A stretch of DNA of 64,000 nucleotides from an uncultured Candidatus Saccharibacteria bacterium (GCA_964501355.1 CAZCSM010000003.1:1660-65659); one strand, 5' to 3'; counted from the first letter of the stretch, positions 21,275 through 56,682 are shown. Translations and numbers: made by a program. Notes: generated by a model from the sequence alone, not told the origin.

Positions 21275-21898
21275 TTATTTCGCGAAAATATCGGCCCTTA
21301 TACTGAAATATGAAGGCTCTTGCAAGTCTTTGCTAATGAATACTCCAATTGTTAGCCATTCGTTTGGCTGTAAAGTTATAGCGGGTTCAAATCCCGATTT
21401 TTTTACAATATCCGAAAGGGTAAATGCTGTATCGTCAATTTTTAACTTGAGATTTTCTAATTGTTCATCTTTAAAATAATCGGTAACATGTATGACAATT
21501 GTTTCGCTTCTATCGGAAGTGTTAACGATTCGAAGTAAATCTTCATTTCTATCTTGAGTTGAATCTTTGTAAGCTCTAATGGTCATTTCATAAGAATCAT
21601 TTTCTTTTTTTGCTTCTTCAATGACTATACTTTCCAAGGTTGTTGGGAGAAGTTCGGTTTTGTAAGAAATGACTTCATCATCAACTGTCGTTTGAACACC
21701 GAGAACATCCTTTTTCGCAAGGGATAACGTTTTCACAGAAGGTGTTCTGGTAGTTGGACTAAATCCTCCAAATACGAGAACTGGAATAGCTAGAAGTGCG
21801 ACGAAAGATGCTACTAGTAATGTTTCTGCGATTGTGTTGGCAATGTTTTTCATTAAAATCTTTTGCAAATTAATTTTGCTTTTTTCCAGTATAGTCAA
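21275..21898 (-). CDS. Hypothetical membrane-anchored protein
   Basis: N-terminal TM helix. It overlaps the upstream ORF at 21870-21898. Confidence 0.5.
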   Translation of the reverse strand: MTILEKSKINLQKILMKNIANTIAETLLVASFVALLAIPVLVFGGFSPTTRTPSVKTLSLAKKDVLGVQTTVDDEVISYKTELLPTTLESIVIEEAKKENDSYEMTIRAYKDSTQDRNEDLLRIVNTSDRSETIVIHVTDYFKDEQLENLKLKIDDTAFTLSDIVKKSGFEPAITLQPNEWLTIGVFISKDLQEPSYFSIRADIFAK

Positions 21899-22406
21899 TT
21901 TCTAGATTCTTCACCAGTACAAGTGTAGAAATTATTCCAAACCCGACTGCAATTATCGCCGTCCAAATATGTGATTCTGCTTTCGCGGCATTTACAGTTG
22001 TTAGAATAATAGCTAACCAGAGAAATGCGAGCCATACGATTGCTTTTGTGTAAATTGATAAAGAAGATTCAATCGAAGATAATCTGTCTTTATCAGCAAT
22101 TTGAATTAACTTTTGTGGCGTAATTCTCGAATCCTGAAAATGATTTAATTTATATAAAACATAATTAAAACCAATAACTGGAACAATTAGCATTAATAAA
22201 TTTGAAAAAGTGTTTACCGTTAGCAAATCATTTAATGATTGAAATGTTATTTCATAAGGAATTATCTTTCCATTTTCGACTTGGTTTATTTCATATTTCA
22301 GTCCAAATAGGATTACCGCAAGAACCATACCACCAACTTTCGAAAGTACCAAAGCAAGAGACGGTATTATTGATTCATCAACAAGTTTTATTAATGTTTT
22401 CGACAT
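21870..22406 (-). CDS. Hypothetical integral membrane protein
   Basis: Four or five predicted TM helices. Confidence 0.5.
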   Translation of the reverse strand: MSKTLIKLVDESIIPSLALVLSKVGGMVLAVILFGLKYEINQVENGKIIPYEITFQSLNDLLTVNTFSNLLMLIVPVIGFNYVLYKLNHFQDSRITPQKLIQIADKDRLSSIESSLSIYTKAIVWLAFLWLAIILTTVNAAKAESHIWTAIIAVGFGIISTLVLVKNLEIDYTGKKQN

Positions 22407-22461
22407 GAGACTTGGCAGATTTATTACATCTTTAGAATAGAGAATAATTGGGGAAGAGTAA

Positions 22462-22624
22462 AGGGGAATTCAAAATGCAAATATTTCGATAAACTCAGCA
22501 CAAGTCTCAAAAATCAAATCAAAAATAAAAATATAATTCAGTATAAAGGATGTATCAAAGTAGTTGCAAAATAGATAAAAATGGTTACAAAGTTGTTAAA
22601 ACATTGTTCAAACGTAGATAAAAC
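22462..22624 (+). repeat. Direct repeat copy A (~160 bp), upstream boundary of the DGR island
   Basis: AGGGGAATTCAAAATGCAAA...AAAAATAAAAATATAATTCAGTATAAAG..TCAAAGTAGTTGCAAAATAGATA.AAATGGTTACAAAGTTGTTAAAACATTGTTCAAACGT.GATAAAA is nearly identical to 27046-27194. Confidence 0.85.
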
Positions 22625-22927
22625 GCCCTGTTTCTCCTCCTTTTTTACCCACGCCTTGGCGGGGCAAGCAAGGAGGGGTGATTCCGAAGGAATCGGGGTG
22701 GTTGAGGGAAGTGCAATAGGGTTCCAAAACCTTTCTGCGAAAAGATAGTTTGATAAACTCATCACAGGTTTAGGAACCATCGGTAGTTTTTAATTTGGAA
22801 TTTTGGTAATTGTAATTTGTTTGGAAATTGAGATTTGGAAATTGGTGCTTAAATGTTGTGCCAGTCACTCACTTTCGGGTGACGGTTTACAATCAGAACG
22901 CTAAATGAACATAAGTTGTCATTGCGA

Positions 22928-23016
22928 GGAGTGTAACGACGAAGCAATCTCTTGAAAATGGGATTGCCACGCTCGCCCCGCCTTGGCGGGACAAGCTCGC
23001 AATGACAAAACACACT
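22928..23016. mobile_element. MITE-like palindromic element with 11-bp terminal inverted repeats GTCATTGCGAG / CTCGCAATGAC
   Basis: Perfect 11-bp TIRs enclose GC-rich hairpins. The internal sequence recurs at 46286-46310 (ATTGCGAGGAtTGTgACGAtGAAG) and 19081-19110 (CACGCT.GCCCCGC..GCGGGACAAGCT). Confidence 0.6.
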
Positions 23017-23101
23017 CATTGAACAGCCCTACTTCTTCTTGACTTCACTCCACACTTTACGTATTCTGAATATGTAGAATTCTATATTACACAAATCCAT
23101 C

Positions 23102-24031
23102 ATGAAAATTCAGAAACGTGATATTTTAATCTTTTCTATCGGTGTGCTCATTACCTTAGCATTTTCTCCATTCTTCAAATCTCTCGTTTCCGCGGAGCAA
23201 TCCGGCACTACTCCAAATAGCGGAGCAACATCATACATCAAACAACTTTACGATTCGCTGGTATCACTAGGCAATGGTTCTGATTCATCGGGATCATGGG
23301 GAGATTGGGGAGGGATGTGGAATAGGATTCGCTCATCTTCGGAATGGGTGCCAAGCGGAGATGCAACTGCGGGAGATGTGGTGGCGGGGAAGATGTTTTA
23401 TGGCAATTCAAGAACGCAGATGATTGGGACTGGTCCAGAACCGATAGATTTTTCACTTTTTCAGTACAGTGCCAGAGACGATTACGCAGGTGCATACTAT
23501 ACAGGACTTGGACCTGAAGACTATCAGGGCGAGGAAGCGGAATGGACAGATCATAGTGTTGATGCTGATGTGGTCTGGAAAGATGAACGGGCAGGTATGT
23601 ACTGGACCGCTGACAGAGGAATTCTGACTGCGAATAATTTCACAATGGCAACCTGTCAATTTTTCACATCAGAGCCTAGATCGAGTTATGACGGGAGCGA
23701 CTTGACATGTGGGGGGACAGCAGAAGAACCTCATGCGATAAACTACTGTGCTACACTAGATTATGGAGGAAGAACCGACTGGTATCTACCATCTCAGAAG
23801 GAGCTAATGATGGCATACATAGATGGTATGTACAATCAGGCAGGAGCTACACCAGCAGAAGCAGCAGCATTTACGTATGGCACTTCAGGAGGTGGTGGTT
23901 ATCGGTTCTGGTCGTCTTCCGAGGTGTCTAACAATCCAACAAACGCTTGGACCGTAAACATGAGCATCGGCAACACGAACTACACCATTAAGACGAATGC
24001 GCTCGCCGTTAGGTGTGTAGCGAGGGACTGA
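23102..24031 (+). CDS. DGR target protein: a secreted/membrane-anchored DUF1566 (Lcl-like C-type-lectin fold) protein with a C-terminal variable region
   Basis: N-terminal signal/TM segment. 'CATLDYGGRTDWYLPSQKEL' is the DUF1566 hallmark. The C-terminus '...YRFWSSSEVSNNPTNAWTVNMSIGNTNYTIKTNALAVRCVARD' is the VR, matched by the TR at 24361-24483. Confidence 0.85.
   Translation: MKIQKRDILIFSIGVLITLAFSPFFKSLVSAEQSGTTPNSGATSYIKQLYDSLVSLGNGSDSSGSWGDWGGMWNRIRSSSEWVPSGDATAGDVVAGKMFYGNSRTQMIGTGPEPIDFSLFQYSARDDYAGAYYTGLGPEDYQGEEAEWTDHSVDADVVWKDERAGMYWTADRGILTANNFTMATCQFFTSEPRSSYDGSDLTCGGTAEEPHAINYCATLDYGGRTDWYLPSQKELMMAYIDGMYNQAGATPAEAAAFTYGTSGGGGYRFWSSSEVSNNPTNAWTVNMSIGNTNYTIKTNALAVRCVARD
23906..24028 (+). 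other. DGR variable region (VR)
   Basis: 123 bp aligning with the TR. The 5' 45 bp are identical. The 3' part shows 11 substitutions, 10 of them at TR adenines (AAC->ACC/AGC/ATC/TAC/CTC, AAT->ATT, ACA->ACG, GCA->GCG). It ends GTTAGGTGTGTAGCGAGGGAC. Confidence 0.85.
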
Positions 24032-24065
24032 TGATTAGAATTTAATAATTTCTTATTTAAAATTT

Positions 24066-24091
24066 ATCATCCGATCTTTAGATCGGATGAT
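24066..24091 (+). promoter_or_regulatory. Perfect stem-loop 38 bp downstream of the VR (ATCATCCGATC-TTTA-GATCGGATGAT)
   Basis: 11-bp perfect stem with a 4-nt loop. Its position matches the DNA hairpin/cruciform that enhances homing in characterised DGRs. Confidence 0.6.
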
Positions 24092-24360
24092 TTGCGACAA
24101 AAAACTACTATATTGAAAAAACTAGTAAAGTGGTGTAGATTATTGTCGCGTGGATTCTATAGTTACAACTTCATCGTAAGCTCTGAGCTATAGGGAAGGC
24201 CCGATTTTCAGTCCGTTCCACTGCACCTGATTTTTTCAGGTATTATTATTCAGTGAGACTTTTTCGCTGAAATGCGAATCAGTCTTATGGTGGATTCTGT
24301 GTTAGACAAGATTCTAATGTCTTGTCTTGCAGAATAAAGTCAGTGGGAAATAGCGTTGTG

Positions 24361-24483
24361 TTCTGGTCGTCTTCCGAGGTGTCTAACAATCCAACAAACG
24401 CTTGGAACGTAAACTTGAACAACGGCAACACGAACAACAACAATAAGACAAATGCAAACGCCGTTAGGTGTGTAGCGAGGGAC
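24361..24483 (+). other. DGR template repeat (TR), adenine-rich (AAC-codon rich)
   Basis: TTCTGGTCGTCTTCCGAGGTGTCTAACAATCCAACAAACGCTTGGAACGTAAACTTGAACAACGGCAACACGAACAACAACAATAAGACAAATGCAAACGCCGTTAGGTGTGTAGCGAGGGAC, in the same orientation as the VR (plus strand). Confidence 0.85.
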
Positions 24484-24497
24484 TTATCATCGGGCTT

Positions 24498-24857
24498 TTA
24501 CGCAGTCTGGTTCTCCGACCACTTGATCCATCCGTTAAGCATTTTAGCGATTTCCTCATTTTGGGATATTATGTAAGCATACTGTTGGGAAGCGATAAGT
24601 TTCAACTCATGTGCCATACGCAGTCGTGATTTCAACCTGTCAAACGAAGCAGAAGCTTGACGAATAATTCCAGCCTTTTGAGTGTTTTGGCGAGTATTCG
24701 TAGCAATTATTTTATCAAGAGTTTCCCATGCACAGTCAATTATTGATTGACCAAGCGTGTACTTATATTCTTTTTTGAAATTCCTGACAAGTAGATACAA
24801 ATATTTCAAAAGTTTGTATGTGGCTACATACAGAGGAAGTTCGTCTAATTTGCTCAT
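24498..24857 (-). CDS. avd: DGR accessory variability determinant (Avd)
   Basis: 119-aa basic helical protein immediately downstream of and 4-bp overlapping the RT. Size and position are typical of Avd. Its 3' end abuts the TR. Confidence 0.75.
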   Translation of the reverse strand: MSKLDELPLYVATYKLLKYLYLLVRNFKKEYKYTLGQSIIDCAWETLDKIIATNTRQNTQKAGIIRQASASFDRLKSRLRMAHELKLIASQQYAYIISQNEEIAKMLNGWIKWSENQTA

Positions 24858-26056
24858 TTTTGTTTTGCAACTAAAGTAAAATATGAATAATTGTCATCAA
24901 TTGGCACTAAGTACTCTTTCAAAGTTCCAAAATGATTTTCATACAGATCTCTACGAAGATTGAAGCAGTTCGCATGTTTAAAATGTCCGTAGTACGAATT
25001 AACCATAGCTAGCATCTTTCTTAACTCTTGCTTTGTTGGGGGTGTAGACAACGGTAATACCATCTGTTTTTGATTTTGCGAAACAAGCAGTTTCCCCTGA
25101 TTGAAGTAATGAAGCTTCGTTTTGAGATTTTGCACCACACGTTTTCTTGCCAGAGTATATTTAGGCTTAACTATATAACCAATAAAATCTATTCCTGAAT
25201 AAACTGAATTGTATTTATCCTTATTTGGGTGAAGTATCAATTGTAAATTTTTCTGTAGAAAAGTGTTTATCTTTTTCCTCCACTGTTTTATCTTATTCAT
25301 ATCATTTGAAATAACGACAAAATCATCAACATACCGTATGTAGTGCTTGATTTTCAACTCACGTTTTACGTACTGATCAAGCTCATTCAAGTATACGTTA
25401 GCAAAAAATTGTGATGTTAAATTTCCTATTGGAAGTCCTTTGTCTTTCCCAGCTTTAAAAAGCGTTTTGTGAGGCGGTATCTGTTTTAGAAGAGATCTAT
25501 CACCTTTGAAGAAAAAATTATCGGTAGGATTATGGTTAAGAATAATTTCTGTGAGCCAGATCAGGTCATCCTTTCTATGTTTTGGAAAATGATTTTCTAT
25601 CTCACTGATGATGATTTCTTTTAGAATATTTTTATCAATCGAAGTAAAAAAGCTTCTGACATCAAACTGCCCATAAAACGCTTTTTTGCTGTAATTTCCT
25701 GTTACGGATCGAATAGCTTTCTTGAGACAGGTTATGGCAGTCAGAAGCCCTTTGTTTTTCCTGCATGCAAAAGAAGAATAGATGAACCGTTTTTCAAAAT
25801 GAGGCTCAAGGTGTGATACAAGCAGATGATGGATAATCCTATCTCTAAAATCGGCGGCAAACACCTCTCTGATCTTCGGATATGTAACCACAAAACAGAT
25901 AGACTTGCCAGGTCTGTACGTTCTGTTTTTCAGTTCTTCAAAAAGCTTCAGGATACTGGATTCAAAATTCATCTCAAACTTAAGAGAGTTAATGGTATTT
26001 CGTTTGTTCTTTCTGCAGGAAAGGTAAGCTTTTAATAAATCTTTTAGTGTAAACAT
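24854..26056 (-). CDS. DGR reverse transcriptase
   Basis: RT motifs 'PKIREVFAADFRDRIIHHLL' and 'YVDDFVV' (YxDD). The DGR-specific 'LPIGNLTSQFFANVYLNELD' (I/LGxxxSQ) replaces the QGxxxSP of other RTs. Confidence 0.9.
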   Translation of the reverse strand: MFTLKDLLKAYLSCRKNKRNTINSLKFEMNFESSILKLFEELKNRTYRPGKSICFVVTYPKIREVFAADFRDRIIHHLLVSHLEPHFEKRFIYSSFACRKNKGLLTAITCLKKAIRSVTGNYSKKAFYGQFDVRSFFTSIDKNILKEIIISEIENHFPKHRKDDLIWLTEIILNHNPTDNFFFKGDRSLLKQIPPHKTLFKAGKDKGLPIGNLTSQFFANVYLNELDQYVKRELKIKHYIRYVDDFVVISNDMNKIKQWRKKINTFLQKNLQLILHPNKDKYNSVYSGIDFIGYIVKPKYTLARKRVVQNLKTKLHYFNQGKLLVSQNQKQMVLPLSTPPTKQELRKMLAMVNSYYGHFKHANCFNLRRDLYENHFGTLKEYLVPIDDNYSYFTLVAKQK

Positions 26057-26122
26057 ATGAAAAGATAAGAAAGATGTTTAAAAATCTCTTCAATTATTGT
26101 ACTATGGTATTATAATAATTAA

Positions 26123-27001
26123 TTGATTATGAAAAACATGCTCAAAATACGAATTATTGTAACCCTTCTTCCTCTTTTGTTAGCGACATTTATAGTTCCA
26201 AGTGCAACTTTTGCTGCTTCGGTTTCTCTCAAAGGTACAGCTGAAGTTGTGAATACTGGCAATTCACTATTATTCGAATCGAATAACAGTGCTGTTACTG
26301 TTGATACTGAAACTGGTAATTTATCAGGATTTGTTTGGTCGGAAGATTTGGGTTGGATTGATTTTGATAATAATAGCGGTGCTAATTCTGCAAAGATTAA
26401 TCTGGAAACAGGTGTAGTTTCAGGCCTTGCTTATGTAGTTAACACTGCTTCCATTGTTGATTTTACAAATTTCAATAGCAATGTCATTGTTAATTTAGAA
26501 ACTGGTGTTTTCACTGGCTTTGCATGGTCAGTCGAGCTTGGGTGGATTGATTTTTCAACTGTAAATACAGGTGGAGTGAAATTGGTGCTTGATGAAAACT
26601 TTGTAAATATAACAACGATCGATTCTGAAACTGCACCGGTAGATGGTGTGTGGAAAGTGACTAATAAAAAACCAGTACTTTCAGGAATAACTGCACCAAA
26701 TGCTGTAGTGACTATAACTTTAACGAGAGACGGAACATCAGTTGATGTAGAGGTTATTGCTGATGCTGAAGGTAAATGGAGTTGGACTCCAACAAGTGAT
26801 TTGGTGCTTGGCGCTTATACTGTGAGAATCGTGTCAGAAAATGCAGATGGCGTAATTTCCGAGACTACATTTACTTTAAATATAATGATTTCTGATTTAG
26901 CAAGCTCTGGACTTAGTAATCCGTATGTGATGATTGTTCTAACGATTGTTGGAGTCTTGGTTGTGGTTTTTTCGGCTAAGAAGAAGGTCGTAACAATGTA
27001 G
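26123..27001 (+). CDS. Secreted surface protein with a signal peptide and a C-terminal TM anchor, inside the DGR island
   Basis: Signal peptide 'LLPLLLATFIVPSATFAAS'. It has repeated 'TG..SG..WSE.LGWIDF' motifs and C-terminal 'VMIVLTIVGVLVVVFSAKKK'. Confidence 0.6.
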   Translation: MIMKNMLKIRIIVTLLPLLLATFIVPSATFAASVSLKGTAEVVNTGNSLLFESNNSAVTVDTETGNLSGFVWSEDLGWIDFDNNSGANSAKINLETGVVSGLAYVVNTASIVDFTNFNSNVIVNLETGVFTGFAWSVELGWIDFSTVNTGGVKLVLDENFVNITTIDSETAPVDGVWKVTNKKPVLSGITAPNAVVTITLTRDGTSVDVEVIADAEGKWSWTPTSDLVLGAYTVRIVSENADGVISETTFTLNIMISDLASSGLSNPYVMIVLTIVGVLVVVFSAKKKVVTM

Positions 27002-27045
27002 ATGCAATGTTGAATCAATGTGGTAGCAATGTTGAAGAATCGTAG

Positions 27046-27194
27046 AGGGGAATTCAAAATGCAAAAATCAAAAATCAAAATAACAAATCAAAAATAAAAA
27101 TATAATTCAGTATAAAGAACGTTTCAAAGTAGTTGCAAAATAGATACAAAATGGTTACAAAGTTGTTAAAACATTGTTCAAACGTGGATAAAAG
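27046..27194 (+). repeat. Direct repeat copy B, downstream boundary of the DGR island
   Basis: See copy A. It is followed by a dense array of GC-rich hairpins at 27200-27410 (CCTTCC-TAATAA-GGAAGG, CCCCTTCTTTTTAGAGGGG, GTCAC-TTC-GTGAC, CCTTCC-TTTTTA-GGAAGG). Confidence 0.85.
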
Positions 27195-27379: not shown

Positions 27380-27407
27380 ACAAAAAAGGTCCAGACATGT
27401 CTGGACC
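27380..27407 (-). terminator. rpsT terminator: a perfect 20-bp palindrome GGTCCAGACATGTCTGGACC followed by a U-run on the minus strand
   Basis: On the minus strand the hairpin is followed by TTTTTTGTTCTTCC, 24 nt after the rpsT stop. Confidence 0.75.
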
Positions 27408-27430
27408 CTACGAGTTCTGAAAATTCCTAC

Positions 27431-27694
27431 TTATTTTGCAATAGAGTTTACTTTCTTTGCCATTCTAGATTTTAGTCTAGCGGCTGTGTTTGGGTGCATA
27501 AATCTTCTTGCTGCTTTATCAAGAGCTTTTGTTGCTTCTTGAAGTTTGGTTGTAGCTGTTTTTGCATCTTTTTCTACAACGGCTTTATTCGTTTCTTTAA
27601 CCAATCTCTTCGTTTTTACTCGAATCTTTTTGTTAATTTCAGCTTTTCTTCCTTGTACTCTGATTGCTTTTTTTGCGTTTGCTAAATTTGCCAC
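27431..27694 (-). CDS. rpsT: 30S ribosomal protein S20
   Basis: 'ANLANAKKAIRVQGRKAEINKKIRVKTK...ARRFMHPNTAARLKSRMAKKVN' matches S20 ('ANIKSAKKR...HKNKAAR'). The likely GTG start is at 27694. The longer 137-aa ORF call carries a non-S20 N-terminal extension. Confidence 0.8.
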   Translation of the reverse strand: MANLANAKKAIRVQGRKAEINKKIRVKTKRLVKETNKAVVEKDAKTATTKLQEATKALDKAARRFMHPNTAARLKSRMAKKVNSIAK

Positions 27695-28089
27695 GTTCTT
27701 AAAATTTTTAATAATTATTGTATATTTACCTTTGCGTTTTGATTGGGTCTGAGCTTCCAATCGATATGAATAGTACCAATAAATAGGTGGTAAGTCAATT
27801 ATTAATTGGGCAATATAGTAAATCATTTTAAGTAGTTTTTCCATAAATTTGTGAAAATCTCAAATTTAAAATTACAAATTTCAAATAAATTACAAATTCA
27901 AAAAATAAAATCACAAGCTATTATATATTTGTTATTTTTGTAAAAAACGTCACTTGATATAGTTTTAAATTTGAGTTTTTGGTAATTGAGGGTTGTTTGG
28001 AAATTGGTGCTTGGGATTTGGAAATTAAAGGCTGTTTCTACAGCCGCATCTGTAGTATAATTTCGATACTTCAATTTAGATTTGTAATA

Positions 28090-37445: not shown

Positions 37446-37639
37446 GTTCAAAAATCAAATACTTCGACAGGCTCAGTACAGGTGGAGGATCAGACACATT
37501 ATAGTCACTAACTATAAATGAAGTCGGTAGATATGTTTTTAGTGTTGTGTTTTGTTAACAAAAGTTTTTAATTTGAGGCTAGTAAATAGTTATGTTCCTT
37601 TTGACACCAAATAACCCCCTTTGTTGCTTCGCAACATTT

Positions 37640-37780
37640 CCCCCTTATCAGGGGGAATCTACCAAAAGTGCCGAAACAACAGAACGTCCTCCAATCACGA
37701 CCTAAAAACAGGTTGCAACCGACATCTGTCGTTTCGGACTTCAACGAGTAACCGACCATCTACAGATAACAAAGGGGTAA
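37640..37780 (+). repeat. Structured intergenic element copy R1 of the CTGAAACAAC family (divergent)
   Basis: CCCCCTTATCAGGGGG hairpin, CCAAAAGTGCCGAAACAAC...GTCGTTTCGGACTTCAACGAGTAACCGACCATCTACAGATAACAAAGGGG. Confidence 0.6.
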
Positions 37781-37842
37781 ACAAAATAGTTCAGAACAAA
37801 AAGCTTTCTTTCATCAGATTCTATATTCTTGATAGTAAAGAA

Positions 37843-41565: not shown

Positions 41566-41579
41566 AGTTTTTCATTGTA

Positions 41580-41737
41580 CTACTTTTGCAAACAAAAGTA
41601 GCCAAAATTTCTGGGACAACCTAGTTTCGACAAATAGCAATCAGATACAGATAACTACCGGAATAGGTTGGCCCAGACCCCAACGACTAACAGTCCAATA
41701 CCAAATTACAAAGGGAAGGCGGACTGTTACTTCTTTA
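41580..41737 (+). repeat. Structured intergenic element copy R2
   Basis: CTACTTTTG-CAAAC-CAAAAGTAG hairpin, CCAAAATTTCTGGGACAACC...GGTTGGCCCAGACCCCAACGACTAACAGTCC...CAAATTACAAAGGGAAGGCGGACTGTTACTTCTTTA. Confidence 0.65.
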
Positions 41738-42131
41738 AATCATATGATTCTTTTATCCATTCCGTTAATTCCTCATCTATTTCTCCTGCACTTGCAATAA
41801 ATAATTGATGTTTATAATTTGTTGCAGATAATGGTACGGTTTGCACTATTCGTGGACTTTTCAAAATTCTATCAAGGGCAAATCGTATTTCTAATTTGTC
41901 TTTCTTTGGCAACAGTGCGATAAAGTCGTAGTTTCCAAATAAGTGTATGCAGCAAGGTAATGAAATTTCTTTCACTTTTCCAATTTCGGATTCTATTATT
42001 TTTAGCAATTGTTTATAGAGGTTTGCCGCAAGCTCTTTATTTTCAAAGTGCGATTCTATTGGAACCTTTTTGCAACTATGCATCTGGTTAGCTTTATCAA
42101 AAATTCTGCCACAAGATTTACAGGTCCACAT
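41727..42131 (-). CDS. Hypothetical protein (N-terminal CxxC...HxC zinc-ribbon-like)
   Basis: 134-aa ORF starting 'MWTCKSCGRIFDKANQMHSCKK'. Confidence 0.45.
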   Translation of the reverse strand: MWTCKSCGRIFDKANQMHSCKKVPIESHFENKELAANLYKQLLKIIESEIGKVKEISLPCCIHLFGNYDFIALLPKKDKLEIRFALDRILKSPRIVQTVPLSATNYKHQLFIASAGEIDEELTEWIKESYDLKK

Positions 42132-48994: not shown

Positions 48995-49093
48995 GATAAT
49001 AATTTTTTACTGTAATGATTATTCAGCTTGGATTATAACATTTTATTATCATTGCGAGGAGGGGAATCTTTTTTTAATAAATATTGAGACTAT

Positions 49094-49246
49094 GTTACTT
49101 TTTACACAAAAAGTAACCAAAAGTGCTGAAACAACATAGCGCCTCAGATAGCAACCTTGAAACAAATAACTACCGGCATACGTTGTTTCAGACTTCGACG
49201 ACTGGACAACCCAATACAAATAACAAGGGGGCTGTTACTTCTTTAC
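49094..49246 (+). repeat. Structured intergenic element copy R3, in the fmt 5' region
   Basis: GTTACTTTTT-ACAC-AAAAAGTAAC hairpin, CCAAAAGTGCTGAAACAAC...GTTGTTTCAGACTTCGACGACTGGACAACCCAATACAAATAACAAGGGGGCTGTTACTTCTTTA. Confidence 0.65.
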
Positions 49247-49293
49247 TTTTAAACTGGTATAATTCGGGCAAGTACATAACACGTATTAATAAA

Positions 49294-50909: not shown

Positions 50910-50954
50910 AACCGAAGTTATTCGATAAGCCGAATTTTGTATTCATCAACAAAG

Positions 50955-51247
50955 ATGAACGATGATCATCTATCTAAGCTGCCTACTCTTTGGCATTGCT
51001 CTAGATGGGGGTTACAATGCGTACGTCATTACTGACAATACCGGTGGTCTCTTACACCGCCTTTTCACCCTTACTTATCTTTCGATAAGCGGTATATTTT
51101 CTGTGGCCCTTTTCTCCGTGAGATTGCTCCCACCCAACTTTCGTTGGCATCACGACCTTCGATTTTGCTGGAGGACTTGTCCTGAGCTTGTCGAAGGAGA
51201 GTCCGGACTTTCCTCAGTGCTTGCGCACCGCGATCATCTGAATAACT
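50955..51247 (-). ncRNA. rnpB: RNase P RNA (bacterial type, reduced)
   Basis: The minus strand reads ...CAGATGATCGCGGTGCGCAAGCACTGAGGAAAGTCCGGACTCTCC... (P4 5' strand GGAAAGUCCGG) and ...AGTAAGGGTGAAAAGGCGGTGTAAGAGACCACC... (consensus GGGUGAAAnGGUGcGGUAAGAGCGCACC). It ends with GGCAGCTTAGATAGATGATCATC, closing P1 with the 5' GATGATC. TATAAT lies at 51255-51260 on the minus strand. Confidence 0.8.
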
Positions 51248-51302
51248 TACGGTGCTATTATAGCATTTTTTGTGATGTAGGGACAGAGTATTACTCTGTC
51301 CC

Positions 51303-52110: not shown

Positions 52111-52116
52111 ATATTG

Positions 52117-54840
52117 ATGAAATTTACAGTTAATCAAAAAATATTTGAAAAGTACCCAAATGTAATTCTTGGTATTATTCATGTTTCAGATTTGCAGAAT
52201 AAGAAAGAATTTGAAAAAGAGGATGCGATGGAATTTCTACAAGGTCATGAAGCAAATGTGCGGGAATTCTTGAAAGAGAATGAAATAACAGATTTGTCTG
52301 TTGTTCAAAACTGGCGTGAGATATTCCAATCTTTTGGTTCAAAACCAAGTAAGTTCAAATCGTCAATTGAAGCACTCCTTCGTCGTGAGAAAAAAGGAGA
52401 GGCTTTGCCTGATATTAATCCGTTGGTTAATTTTTACAATGCTCTTTCATTACATTACAAAATCCCATTTGGAGCAGAGGATTTAACAAAAATTGTTGGC
52501 AATGTTGAACTTACATTTTCTGATGGAACGGTTGCTTGTCAGTTGATTGGTGATAATGAACCTAAACTTGCAGATGAGGGTGAAGTTGTTTACAAGGATG
52601 ATGTTGGCGCAATTTGCCGCAAGTGGTGCTGGCGAGAATCGGATCGTACAAAGATTACAGAGGAAACAACTGATGCCTTCTTCGTTATAGAATTTAATGA
52701 CGGTGATTTAGAAAATGCAAAGCAGGTTGTTGCAGAAACAATCGATGCAATGAATCACTTCTTCGATGTGAAAACACAAAGCTGGATTGTAAATAAAGAT
52801 AATAATGAAATTGAAATTCCGTTTGGAACGAAGCAAGAAGGAGAAAAACTGGTTGTGCAGGAACGAAAAGAATCCGCCTTCGCCAAGGCTTCGGCGGACA
52901 AGAGAGAAAATAAGGTATATCAGCCGAAGACGAATATTGAAGCGAAGGTTTTTCAAGTCTTATCGTTAGTTGTCAAAGAAAAGTTTGGAGAAGAATTTGT
53001 TTCAGATATTGAGCTTGAGCATCCGGCAGATGAATCGCATGGTGACCTCGCGACTAATATCGCAATGAAATTAGCCGGAAGGTTGAAACGAAATCCAAGA
53101 GAAATTGCGCAGGAAATTTTTGAAGAGTTGGATCCAATGGTTCGCGGTATGTTGAAAAAAGGTGATAGAGTAACACGGGTAACCTATTTTGATTTTCCTA
53201 ATGGTTTGATAGGCGATGTTAAGATTGCAGGATCGGGATTTATCAACTTCTTTATTCATAAAGAGAGTTTGGTCTCTGAGATTAAAGACATGAACGAATC
53301 ATATGGTAAATCTTCAAAATATTCCGGTCAAAAAGTTTTACTTGAGCACACTAGTGCCAATCCCAATAAAGCTATGCACATTGGGCATGTTAGAAATAAT
53401 ATTCTTGGTAACTCATTAATAAAACTTCTCGAAGCGGTGGGATATGAAGTTACTGCGGATTACATTGTAAATGATCGCGGGGCTTCAATCTCGAAGGTAA
53501 TGTGGGGTTACCTGAACTTTGCGCAAAAGCAAAATAATCAGGTTTTGAGTACGTGGGAGGATATTAAAGTAAATCTCGCAGGAACAAACTTCGATGAACT
53601 ATTATCAACATGGAATAATTCTCCTGAGCAATGGTTAACACCGGAAGATTTTGAAAATCTGAAATCAGACGAGATGATGGAAAAAGTTTATGTTCTTGCG
53701 TCTCATGCATCGAAAGAACTTGATTGGGTAGATGCTCAGGTCTCGAAGATTCTTGTTGATTGGGAATCAGAAATTCCTGAGAATCGAAAACTTTGGAAGC
53801 AAATATTAGATTGGGTTTTTTCCGGACAGAAGAAAACGATGGCAAGAATGGGAAGTCGGACAGATCATTTCTGGTTTGAGAGCGATTTCTATAAGGAAGG
53901 AAAAGAAATTGTAACAGAAGGATTGGAAAAAGGAGTTTTTCGAAAAGATGGAACGGCAATTATTACCAACTTTGAGGAACATGGTTTGCCGGATACAATT
54001 GTTATCAAATCTGATGGAACGGCGCTTTACATCACGCAGGATTTGAAACTTACTGAATTAAAAACTCAGAAATTCCCATCCAATAAATATATCTGGGTAG
54101 TCGGTGCGGAACAAAAATTAACGCTTCAACAAGCTTTCCTCGCAGATCATCTATTAGGTATTGTCGACAAAGAAAAACTTTATCACTTTGCCTATGGACT
54201 ATTTACAACTGCATCCGGAGAGAAAATTGGATCTCGAAAAGGAAATGTTGTTTCTGCAGATAATCTTCTGGATTTAGTTACAGATAGCGCAAAGAGCGTA
54301 ATTGAAGAGAAGGGGTTGGAATATTCAGAAGACGAGAAACGAAATATTGCAGAGAAAGTAGGGATTGGGGCTTTGAAATATTTCATTTTGAAATCTAACC
54401 CGTTAAGTTCTCTGAAGTTTGACGCTATAGAAGCAACCTCGTTTGATGGTAATACCGGCCCATATTTGCAGTACACTTATGCGAGGGCAAAAAGTATATT
54501 ACGTGATTCGGACTCCCACCACCCCGATTCCTTCGGAATCACCCCTCCTCGGGCAGAAGGGGAAAATTTGTTTGTTGCGGATTCAGAAATGGCGCTCCTT
54601 CGAACTCTGTACAGGTTTCCTGAATCTGTAATCAATGCAGCAGAAAACTATGCACCGAATTATGTCGCCGATTACATTTTTGATCTTGCGCAGAAATTCA
54701 ATGCGTTCTATCGCGAATGTCCTGTTCTTAGCGCAGAAGACTCCGTAAAGAACTCAAGATTGTTATTAACCGCTTCGGTTGCACAGGTATTGAAGAACGG
54801 ATTAAACCTACTGGGGATCGAAACGTTGGAACGAATGTAA
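52117..54840 (+). CDS. argS: Arginine--tRNA ligase with an N-terminal B3/4 (tRNA-binding) domain fusion
   Basis: Residues ~300-908 carry the Arg_tRNA_synt_N domain ('IELEHPADESHGDLATNIAMKLA'), the class I 'HIGH' motif ('PNKAMHIGHVRNNILGN') and the anticodon-binding C-terminus. Residues 1-~240 resemble stand-alone B3/4-domain proteins. An in-frame palindromic repeat lies near codon 800. Confidence 0.88.
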   Translation: MKFTVNQKIFEKYPNVILGIIHVSDLQNKKEFEKEDAMEFLQGHEANVREFLKENEITDLSVVQNWREIFQSFGSKPSKFKSSIEALLRREKKGEALPDINPLVNFYNALSLHYKIPFGAEDLTKIVGNVELTFSDGTVACQLIGDNEPKLADEGEVVYKDDVGAICRKWCWRESDRTKITEETTDAFFVIEFNDGDLENAKQVVAETIDAMNHFFDVKTQSWIVNKDNNEIEIPFGTKQEGEKLVVQERKESAFAKASADKRENKVYQPKTNIEAKVFQVLSLVVKEKFGEEFVSDIELEHPADESHGDLATNIAMKLAGRLKRNPREIAQEIFEELDPMVRGMLKKGDRVTRVTYFDFPNGLIGDVKIAGSGFINFFIHKESLVSEIKDMNESYGKSSKYSGQKVLLEHTSANPNKAMHIGHVRNNILGNSLIKLLEAVGYEVTADYIVNDRGASISKVMWGYLNFAQKQNNQVLSTWEDIKVNLAGTNFDELLSTWNNSPEQWLTPEDFENLKSDEMMEKVYVLASHASKELDWVDAQVSKILVDWESEIPENRKLWKQILDWVFSGQKKTMARMGSRTDHFWFESDFYKEGKEIVTEGLEKGVFRKDGTAIITNFEEHGLPDTIVIKSDGTALYITQDLKLTELKTQKFPSNKYIWVVGAEQKLTLQQAFLADHLLGIVDKEKLYHFAYGLFTTASGEKIGSRKGNVVSADNLLDLVTDSAKSVIEEKGLEYSEDEKRNIAEKVGIGALKYFILKSNPLSSLKFDAIEATSFDGNTGPYLQYTYARAKSILRDSDSHHPDSFGITPPRAEGENLFVADSEMALLRTLYRFPESVINAAENYAPNYVADYIFDLAQKFNAFYRECPVLSAEDSVKNSRLLLTASVAQVLKNGLNLLGIETLERM
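54508..54565. repeat. Palindromic GC-rich element inserted in frame within argS
   Basis: GGACTCCCACCACCCCGATTCCTTCGGAATCACCCCTCCTCGG. Its reverse complement, GAGGAGGGGTGATTCCGAAGGAATCGGGGTGGT, matches the intergenic sequence at 22671-22702 over 30 of 30 core nt. It encodes '...SDSHHPDSFGITPPRAEGE...'. Confidence 0.75.
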
Positions 54841-56402: not shown

Positions 56403-56457
56403 AGATTACATAAACAGTGTTTGGTTAAGGTCAGAAAAATAACAATAATTTGATAAT

Positions 56458-56597
56458 GTTACTTTTGTCACCAAAAGTAACCAAAAGTGCTGAAACAAAC
56501 CAGTTCCAACAAATAGCAATCAAATACAAATAGCTATCGGAATGGCTTGTTTCAGACTTCGTCGACTGTCCGACCTGATTCAGATAACAGAAGGAAC
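56458..56597 (+). repeat. Structured intergenic element copy R4
   Basis: GTTACTTTT-GTCACC-AAAAGTAAC hairpin, CCAAAAGTGCTGAAACAAACC...GGCTTGTTTCAGACTTCGTCGACTGTCCGACCTGATTCAGATAACAGAAGGAAC. Confidence 0.65.
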
Positions 56598-56682
56598 TTT
56601 CACAAACAACTTTCTCCTTGAGTTTACCTCGCCTTAATAATTCCCTGATTTAATGTTAATGCCTAATTTATGATTTGGATAA

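Follow-up and report, generated by a model that had tools for sequence, protein, structure and literature searches.

Background

In Bacteroides, diversity-generating retroelements (DGRs) borne on integrative and conjugative elements are flanked by direct repeats that result from site-specific integration into tRNA-Lys (bioRxiv 10.1101/2024.11.15.621889). Roux et al. (2021, PMC8144416) described the DGRs of clade 2, which belong to Patescibacteria, as cellular almost without exception. Here we analyse a DGR island between two direct repeats in a stretch of 64,000 nt (hereafter the window) from an uncultured Candidatus Saccharibacteria bacterium (GCA_964501355.1, CAZCSM010000003.1:1660-65659). 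The locus shares with the Bacteroides elements the insertion of a whole DGR cassette between direct repeats and the existence of relatives that show movement between genomes. Unlike in Bacteroides, the DNA between the repeats is free of integrase, conjugation and phage genes, the insertion lies in a spacer next to the ribosomal protein gene rpsT instead of a tRNA gene, both repeats consist of AT-rich DNA ∼150 bp long, and the island measures only 4.4 kb. As in clade 2, the homologues of the reverse transcriptase (RT) carry the names Patescibacteria or Microgenomates and the target gene has a C-terminal variable region (VR). In contrast to that clade, the nearest relatives adjoin genes for RepO and a large serine recombinase, and hence at least this subfamily also rides a small mobile element.

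The locus gives a view of a small-genome bacterium before and after the gain of a DGR, with empty relatives, a filled site and VR variants, and it connects a small element with a serine recombinase and RepO to a DGR subfamily whose group has been called cellular. This is useful for annotation and for studies of how DGRs spread; the event is of a known kind and reveals no new mechanism.

Insertion of the DGR cassette

Both flanks of the island are housekeeping genes and the host genome is Patescibacteria-like. On the left we find lepA, an open reading frame (ORF) of 207 aa and the gene of a conserved 178-aa protein, all on the − strand. On the right rpsT (−) is followed by genes for RNase H and Wzz (Pfam). 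The preliminary description of this DNA had suggested that the cassette was acquired as a unit and that an empty site should be sought. Sites without the DGR were found in five related contigs (L003, L004, L006-L008), in which rpsT directly adjoins the 178-aa gene. For L003 and L004, which show 83% and 61% identity in the 178-aa protein, the wider gene order is also that of the window; L006-L008 are short contigs with the same adjacency. The empty-site spacers have lengths of 231, 269, 186 and 246 nt. The blastn homology of the relatives (L003-L006) to the window ends between 22463 and 22471 and picks up again between 27428 and 27435, at the rpsT stop codon. The DGR in between is therefore a lineage-specific insertion, and the acquisition of the cassette as a unit is supported both by the empty sites and by the closest DGR relatives, which sit in elements with a serine recombinase. 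The content specific to this lineage comprises both copies of the repeat (the block), both adjoining GC-rich stretches, a palindromic element resembling a miniature inverted-repeat transposable element (MITE) and the DGR. All coordinates are collected in Table 1.

The four ORFs of the 4.4-kb insert are those claimed before: Pfam identified a target gene with an Lcl_C domain, avd, the RT and a surface protein with a Big_13 domain. Between the template repeat (TR) and the VR there are 13 differences, with TR adenines accounting for 10. With an RT, an adenine-biased TR/VR pair and a target gene carrying the VR at its 3' end the island has the components of a DGR. Two variants of the target protein from other samples (P0130 and P0131) differ essentially only in the VR, plus a few scattered substitutions, which indicates that the DGR is active. 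RT and avd were also found in L014 and L015 at 95% identity. A perfect hairpin just after the VR is 100% conserved in the relative L009 (11956-11981), in DNA that is otherwise only 73% identical between the two; it is probably the hairpin near the VR by which DGRs recognise their target. The adenine-bearing strand of the TR is the + strand and avd and the RT are on the − strand, in L009 as well as here, so the TR RNA and the RT mRNA must be transcribed convergently.

Relatives of the RT show 85% (L009, L010) and 79% identity (L011-L013). The DGR core (23192-26556) has 70-73% nucleotide identity to L009-L013 and the N-terminal half of the surface protein is common to the DGR relatives. A profile search for the RT in the viral_contigs collection gave no relatives. 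In the relatives the cassettes adjoin genes with HTH_3, Phage_rep_O and large serine recombinase (Resolvase/Recombinase) domains, for instance at 13226-16184 in L009 and 4494-7658 in L012. Cassette and genes together make up a small element in the closest DGR relatives, which suggests that a subfamily of Patescibacteria DGRs has a mobile carrier. Homologues of the helix-turn-helix (HTH), RepO and serine recombinase proteins gave no tblastn match in the window; this search, like the count of block copies in the genome, covers these 64 kb. Remnants of mobility genes in the junction DNA were also considered and rejected, as relaxed tblastn gave only matches at chance level. The locus thus has the flanking direct repeats and the empty site in relatives that are expected of an integrase-type island, ICE or prophage and it holds no recombinase gene. 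A transposon or insertion sequence was rejected: the duplication spans ∼150-175 bp where such elements would leave 2-15 bp, the island has no terminal inverted repeats and no transposase domain was found.

The direct repeat

The preliminary description of two near-identical AT-rich blocks in the same orientation was borne out. In a self-comparison of the window 22507-22623 matched 27075-27193 with 94.1% identity over 119 nt (E 2e-45), and a gapped alignment widened the repeat to 22448-22623 and 27032-27193 at 83%. Perfect stretches of 36 nt and 27 nt each occur exactly twice in the window (expected in shuffles: 0), and the block itself has two copies only. A widespread repeat without relation to the DGR had been named as the finding that would speak against the claim. 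We found no further copy in the window or by exact-word scans of three public collections (genome_contigs, metagenome_contigs with two words, and viral_contigs), which is a weak test as the collections do not include the source genome. Neither junction region had a blastn match among phage records. The left junction was independently assembled in two Logan contigs, L001 and L002, with 99.6-99.8% identity. A small protein encoded in the block was rejected since the right copy has a stop that leaves only ∼15 codons of the 55-aa ORF found in the left copy.

The insertion of the DGR cassette into the spacer that separates rpsT from the 178-aa gene is shown by these comparisons with relatives. On balance, if only just, we judge it probable that the repeats are a duplicated part of that spacer. 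The ancestral locus would have consisted of rpsT, its terminator, an AT-rich spacer of ∼250 nt and the 178-aa gene, all reading leftward. The entry of the 4.4-kb cassette, whose family is accompanied elsewhere by HTH, RepO and large serine recombinase genes, would have duplicated ∼150-175 bp of this spacer, so that the two repeats would be one segment that now lies on either side of the insert. The likeliest route would be a single crossover of the Campbell type, by which the chromosome took up a circular DNA with its own copy of the segment. The duplicated segment would be the upstream part of the control region of the 178-aa gene, and the right copy, facing nothing, is most likely a by-product. 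The repeats are thus probably the footprint of the insertion. Two observations fit this reading. The right copy starts with AGGGGAATTC, and in the left copy the same AGGGGAATTC runs on from DNA that is conserved in the empty-site relatives. Moreover, the native DNA at 22407-22461 plus one copy of the block and the terminator region, minus the right GC-rich element, adds up to 267 nt, which is the size of the spacer in the relatives. As in Campbell-type integration, the insert lies between two direct copies of a chromosomal segment and would potentially be reversible by recombination; unlike there, the copies are 94% and not 100% identical. Since they keep at least 36 nt of perfect identity in direct orientation, excision or duplication of the cassette, or release of a circle, by recombination between the repeats is possible in principle.

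Several results weigh against this reading. The empty-site spacers have diverged so far that the block is not recognisable in them, and the fit consists of the spacer length and the first 10-20 nt. Beyond these nucleotides Smith-Waterman comparison of the block with the empty-site spacers gave z below 2.1, and the phased A-tracts described below are absent from the spacers of the relatives. With neither a homologue of the block nor phasing in those spacers, the native origin rests on the spacer length and the short overlap. The two copies differ by ∼6% plus an indel while the strains differ by 0.2-0.4%, so either the duplication happened long ago or the copies started out different. No allele with a single copy was found within the same species, and neither a circular form or donor nor a recombinase was seen at this locus. 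For the right junction, exact look-ups of S20 (with two choices of start) and of the surface protein yielded no contig and the look-up of avd yielded only contigs of 1.2-1.4 kb.

Architecture of the block

The right-hand half of the block is an array of 11-nt units with phased A-tracts, and across the whole 64 kb the two block copies rank 1st and 2nd in A-tract phasing. A promoter-like site reading leftward lies just downstream of the array. Promoter-like sites common to both copies, each agreeing with the consensus at 10 of 12 positions, were found on the − strand only. Read leftward, the block therefore looks like putatively curved upstream DNA followed by a candidate promoter of the sigma-70 type. 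In the left copy this direction leads to the 178-aa gene, in the right copy only to the antisense strand of the surface-protein gene. Promoter reuse and putative mobile promoters have been described (Nijveen et al. 2012, PMC3575422). The block is similar in that a promoter-bearing upstream segment occurs twice in one genome; it differs in that there are only two copies at one locus and no gene lies downstream of the promoter-like site in the right copy, so the same segment does not precede different genes.

A replication origin was rejected: there are 19 DnaA boxes in the window compared to 19.4 expected, only one of them falls in a block, and the GC skew simply tracks the strand of the genes. 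A second 11-nt array (unit CAATGTnGAnn) abuts the right repeat. A common family of this array and the array of the block was considered and rejected, the similarity being weak.

The native spacer beside the left copy contains a TTTACT-17-TATTCT site on the − strand, which was found by eye and is under the threshold of the scan. On the + strand a TTGGCA-15/16-TAGAAT site (22413-22440; L003 9967-9994) is kept in L003, L004 and L006. In L003 it could give rise to a rightward RNA of ∼150 nt that would stop at the rpsT terminator, which works in both directions. Alternatively, the conservation may merely reflect the 5' leader of the 178-aa gene.

GC-rich stretches

Both block copies run into GC-rich DNA, which had been described as two arrays of small hairpins. 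In comparison with shuffled sequences this holds well for the right stretch (z −7.5 to −8.2) and the structure of the left stretch is modest (z −2.3). The right array had been drawn too far, to 27410: 27386-27409 is the rpsT terminator and not part of it. The two stretches have no similarity to each other and are built from different small palindromes. Neither matched Rfam, all scores being below the gathering scores. The right element is flanked by AGAATAA and AGAACAA, and it folds somewhat better on the + strand (−81.8 compared to −72.7 kcal/mol, with 9 G-U pairs). A role as an RNA is therefore conceivable for this element, which has no homologues that could show covariation. By its inverted ends it resembles a MITE, i.e. 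a small non-autonomous transposable element. In the left stretch a core of 21 nt recurs in the nearby MITE-like element. The left stretch also holds a 32-nt hairpin unit with a second, inverted copy that lies in frame in an ArgRS-like ORF (52114-54840) and encodes ..SHHPDSFGITPP... The strain contig L002 (99.8% identical) departs from the window about five bases into the unit, at ∼22676: past 22675 the rest of the hairpin unit is replaced by ACCCATTATACTAAGTCAAGCGAA (L002 1-24, reverse complement), which is absent from the window and from all retrieved loci.

Repetitive extragenic palindromes (REPs) and bacterial interspersed mosaic elements, MITEs and the Rickettsia palindromic elements are families of small palindromic repeats. 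The elements found here are like them in that small GC-rich palindromes cluster in spacers near terminators, and the in-frame hairpin in the ArgRS-like gene is like the in-gene elements of Rickettsia. They are unlike them in having only 1-4 copies per 64 kb (two for the 32-nt unit, one for the right element) and in that no associated transposase was identified. Palindromic units and inverted ends are present in both cases. The GC-rich stretches are probably later, independent accretions of small REP- or MITE-like palindromic elements at both junctions.

Alternative explanations

We considered whether both copies of the block arrived with the island as its terminal direct repeats and the native spacer was replaced, the island being for example the remnant of a tandem or circularly permuted element. 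The lack of a recognisable block or phased array in the spacers of the relatives would be accounted for, as would the divergence of the copies, which exceeds that of the strains. Yet neither L009 nor L012, the closest DGR elements, contains the block or, apart from the TR/VR pair, any flanking direct repeats. The ancestral spacer would then have measured only ∼120 nt, less than that of every relative, and the first bases of the repeat are native DNA. We consider this origin unlikely. A different view of the repeats was part of the preliminary description: the block would be a promoter or leader that has been reused, and each of its two copies would drive a structured RNA on its right. The very good fold of the right element, better on the + strand, and the repeat breakpoint, which coincides exactly with the start of the GC-rich DNA, agree with it. 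The proposal is not supported, however: the two stretches share neither sequence nor architecture and belong to no Rfam family, the left one is weakly structured and holds a unit that also occurs inside coding sequence, no promoter-like site on the + strand is common to both copies, the shared ones pointing leftward and away from the stretches, and no + strand terminator follows the right stretch. Paralogous RNAs are thus quite improbable.

An equally small probability goes to the reading that the 11-nt array is a platform for a binding protein (a regulator, a nucleoid protein or an iteron binder of the partition type) and that selection maintains both copies for regulating or insulating the island. 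An array of seven units that repeat every 11 nt and whose phasing is the highest in the window, the better conservation of the array half between the copies and the presence of another 11-nt array next to the right copy would suit such a function. Against this, the units are degenerate, the other array is only weakly similar, Pfam gave no candidate binding protein in the island, no relative has a comparable array and the chance-level number of DnaA boxes excludes an origin of replication. An assembly artefact, with the contig misjoined through a repeat, would agree with the lack of an independent assembly of the right junction. But L003 and L004 are collinear with the window on both sides of the island, an arrangement that misjoining would preserve only through two errors that compensate each other. 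The left junction recurs in two other samples, and the copies are different enough to be assembled separately; we regard an artefact as extremely improbable.

Returning to the duplicated spacer, a bolder version of it would be that the repeat-bounded cassette is a mobile DGR unit without an integrase and that, additionally, the 173-nt right element is a new structured RNA of the + strand. Recombination between the repeats would free a circle with one copy, for which one crossover could suffice to re-enter any genome that has this spacer. We think this combination clearly unlikely. If true, it would explain the spread of 'cellular' Patescibacteria DGRs after loss of the recombinase module.

Table 1. 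Position, strand and basis of the features at and around the DGR island (window coordinates).
Feature	Position	Strand	Basis or remark
178-aa conserved hypothetical gene, left chromosomal flank	21870-22406	−	ORF; homologues P0002-P0006
Native spacer shared with empty-site relatives	22407-22470		blastn end-points, alignment
Left direct-repeat copy	22462-22624	+	weaker homology from 22448
Stretch with ∼15 extra nt in left copy, related to dispersed motif TTCGACAGGCTCAGTACAGGT	22481-22508	+	alignment, motif search
Promoter-like TTGATA-17-TATATT, 10/12, toward 178-aa gene	22530-22558	−	promoter scan
Seven 11-nt units with phased A-tracts, top phasing score of window	22550-22626		phasing scan
Left GC-rich patchwork of small palindromes	22625-22744		folds, z −2.3
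32-nt hairpin unit, identical inverted copy at 54518-54549	22671-22702		self-comparison
Low-complexity TTTGGAAATTG stretch, 75% identical to 27960-28035	22784-22859	+	self-comparison
MITE-like palindromic element, z −4.6	22860-23030		fold; 13-nt inverted ends 22916-22928, 22996-23008
DGR target gene, Lcl_C domain, C-terminal VR	23102-24031	+	Pfam
VR	23905-24035	+	TR/VR comparison
Perfect hairpin just after VR	24066-24091		hairpin search, blastn
TR	24360-24490	+	TR/VR comparison
avd accessory gene, bAvd domain	24498-24857	−	Pfam
DGR reverse transcriptase, RVT_1	24854-26056	−	Pfam
Surface protein, Big_13 domain, hydrophobic C-terminal tail	26123/26129-27001	+	Pfam
4.8 copies of 11-nt unit CAATGTnGAnn over surface-protein stop codon	26994-27046	+	repeat scan
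Right direct-repeat copy	27046-27194	+	weaker homology from 27032
Promoter-like TTGAAA-17-TATATT, 10/12, antisense into surface-protein gene	27099-27127	−	promoter scan
Right GC-rich element, 173 nt, 21-nt inverted ends, single window copy	27204-27376		fold, inverted-repeat scan
rpsT intrinsic terminator	27386-27409	−	terminator scan
rpsT (ribosomal protein S20), right chromosomal flank	27431-27694	−	Pfam, blastn with relatives

Other genes and repeats

The 178-aa protein has five clusters of homologues with 55-83% identity; a profile search for further relatives of its gene in genome_contigs gave none. The second copy of the low-complexity TTTGGAAATTG stretch lies upstream of the RNase H gene, and the stretch also occurs in the relative L004.

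The motif TTCGACAGGCTCAGTACAGGT is dispersed over the window, with copies at 37463 (+), 46411 (−) and 51175 (−) and degenerate copies at 22485 and 22749. One copy falls within the RNase P RNA gene (50910-51249). The second degenerate copy near the left block (22745-22769) forms a pair with the first, and together they enclose most of that block plus the left GC-rich stretch.

Two further repeat families were observed. REP-like palindromes of the form TGTAGGGACAGG...CCTGTCCCTACA have four copies in the 64 kb (12627, 13992, 47606 and 51276). The other family, also with four copies (37610-37790, 41575-41750, 49088-49255 and 56452-56610, all +), is ∼150 nt long and contains a long hairpin. It had no Rfam match at gathering scores, and 9 of its 29 predicted pairs are held through two-sided changes.

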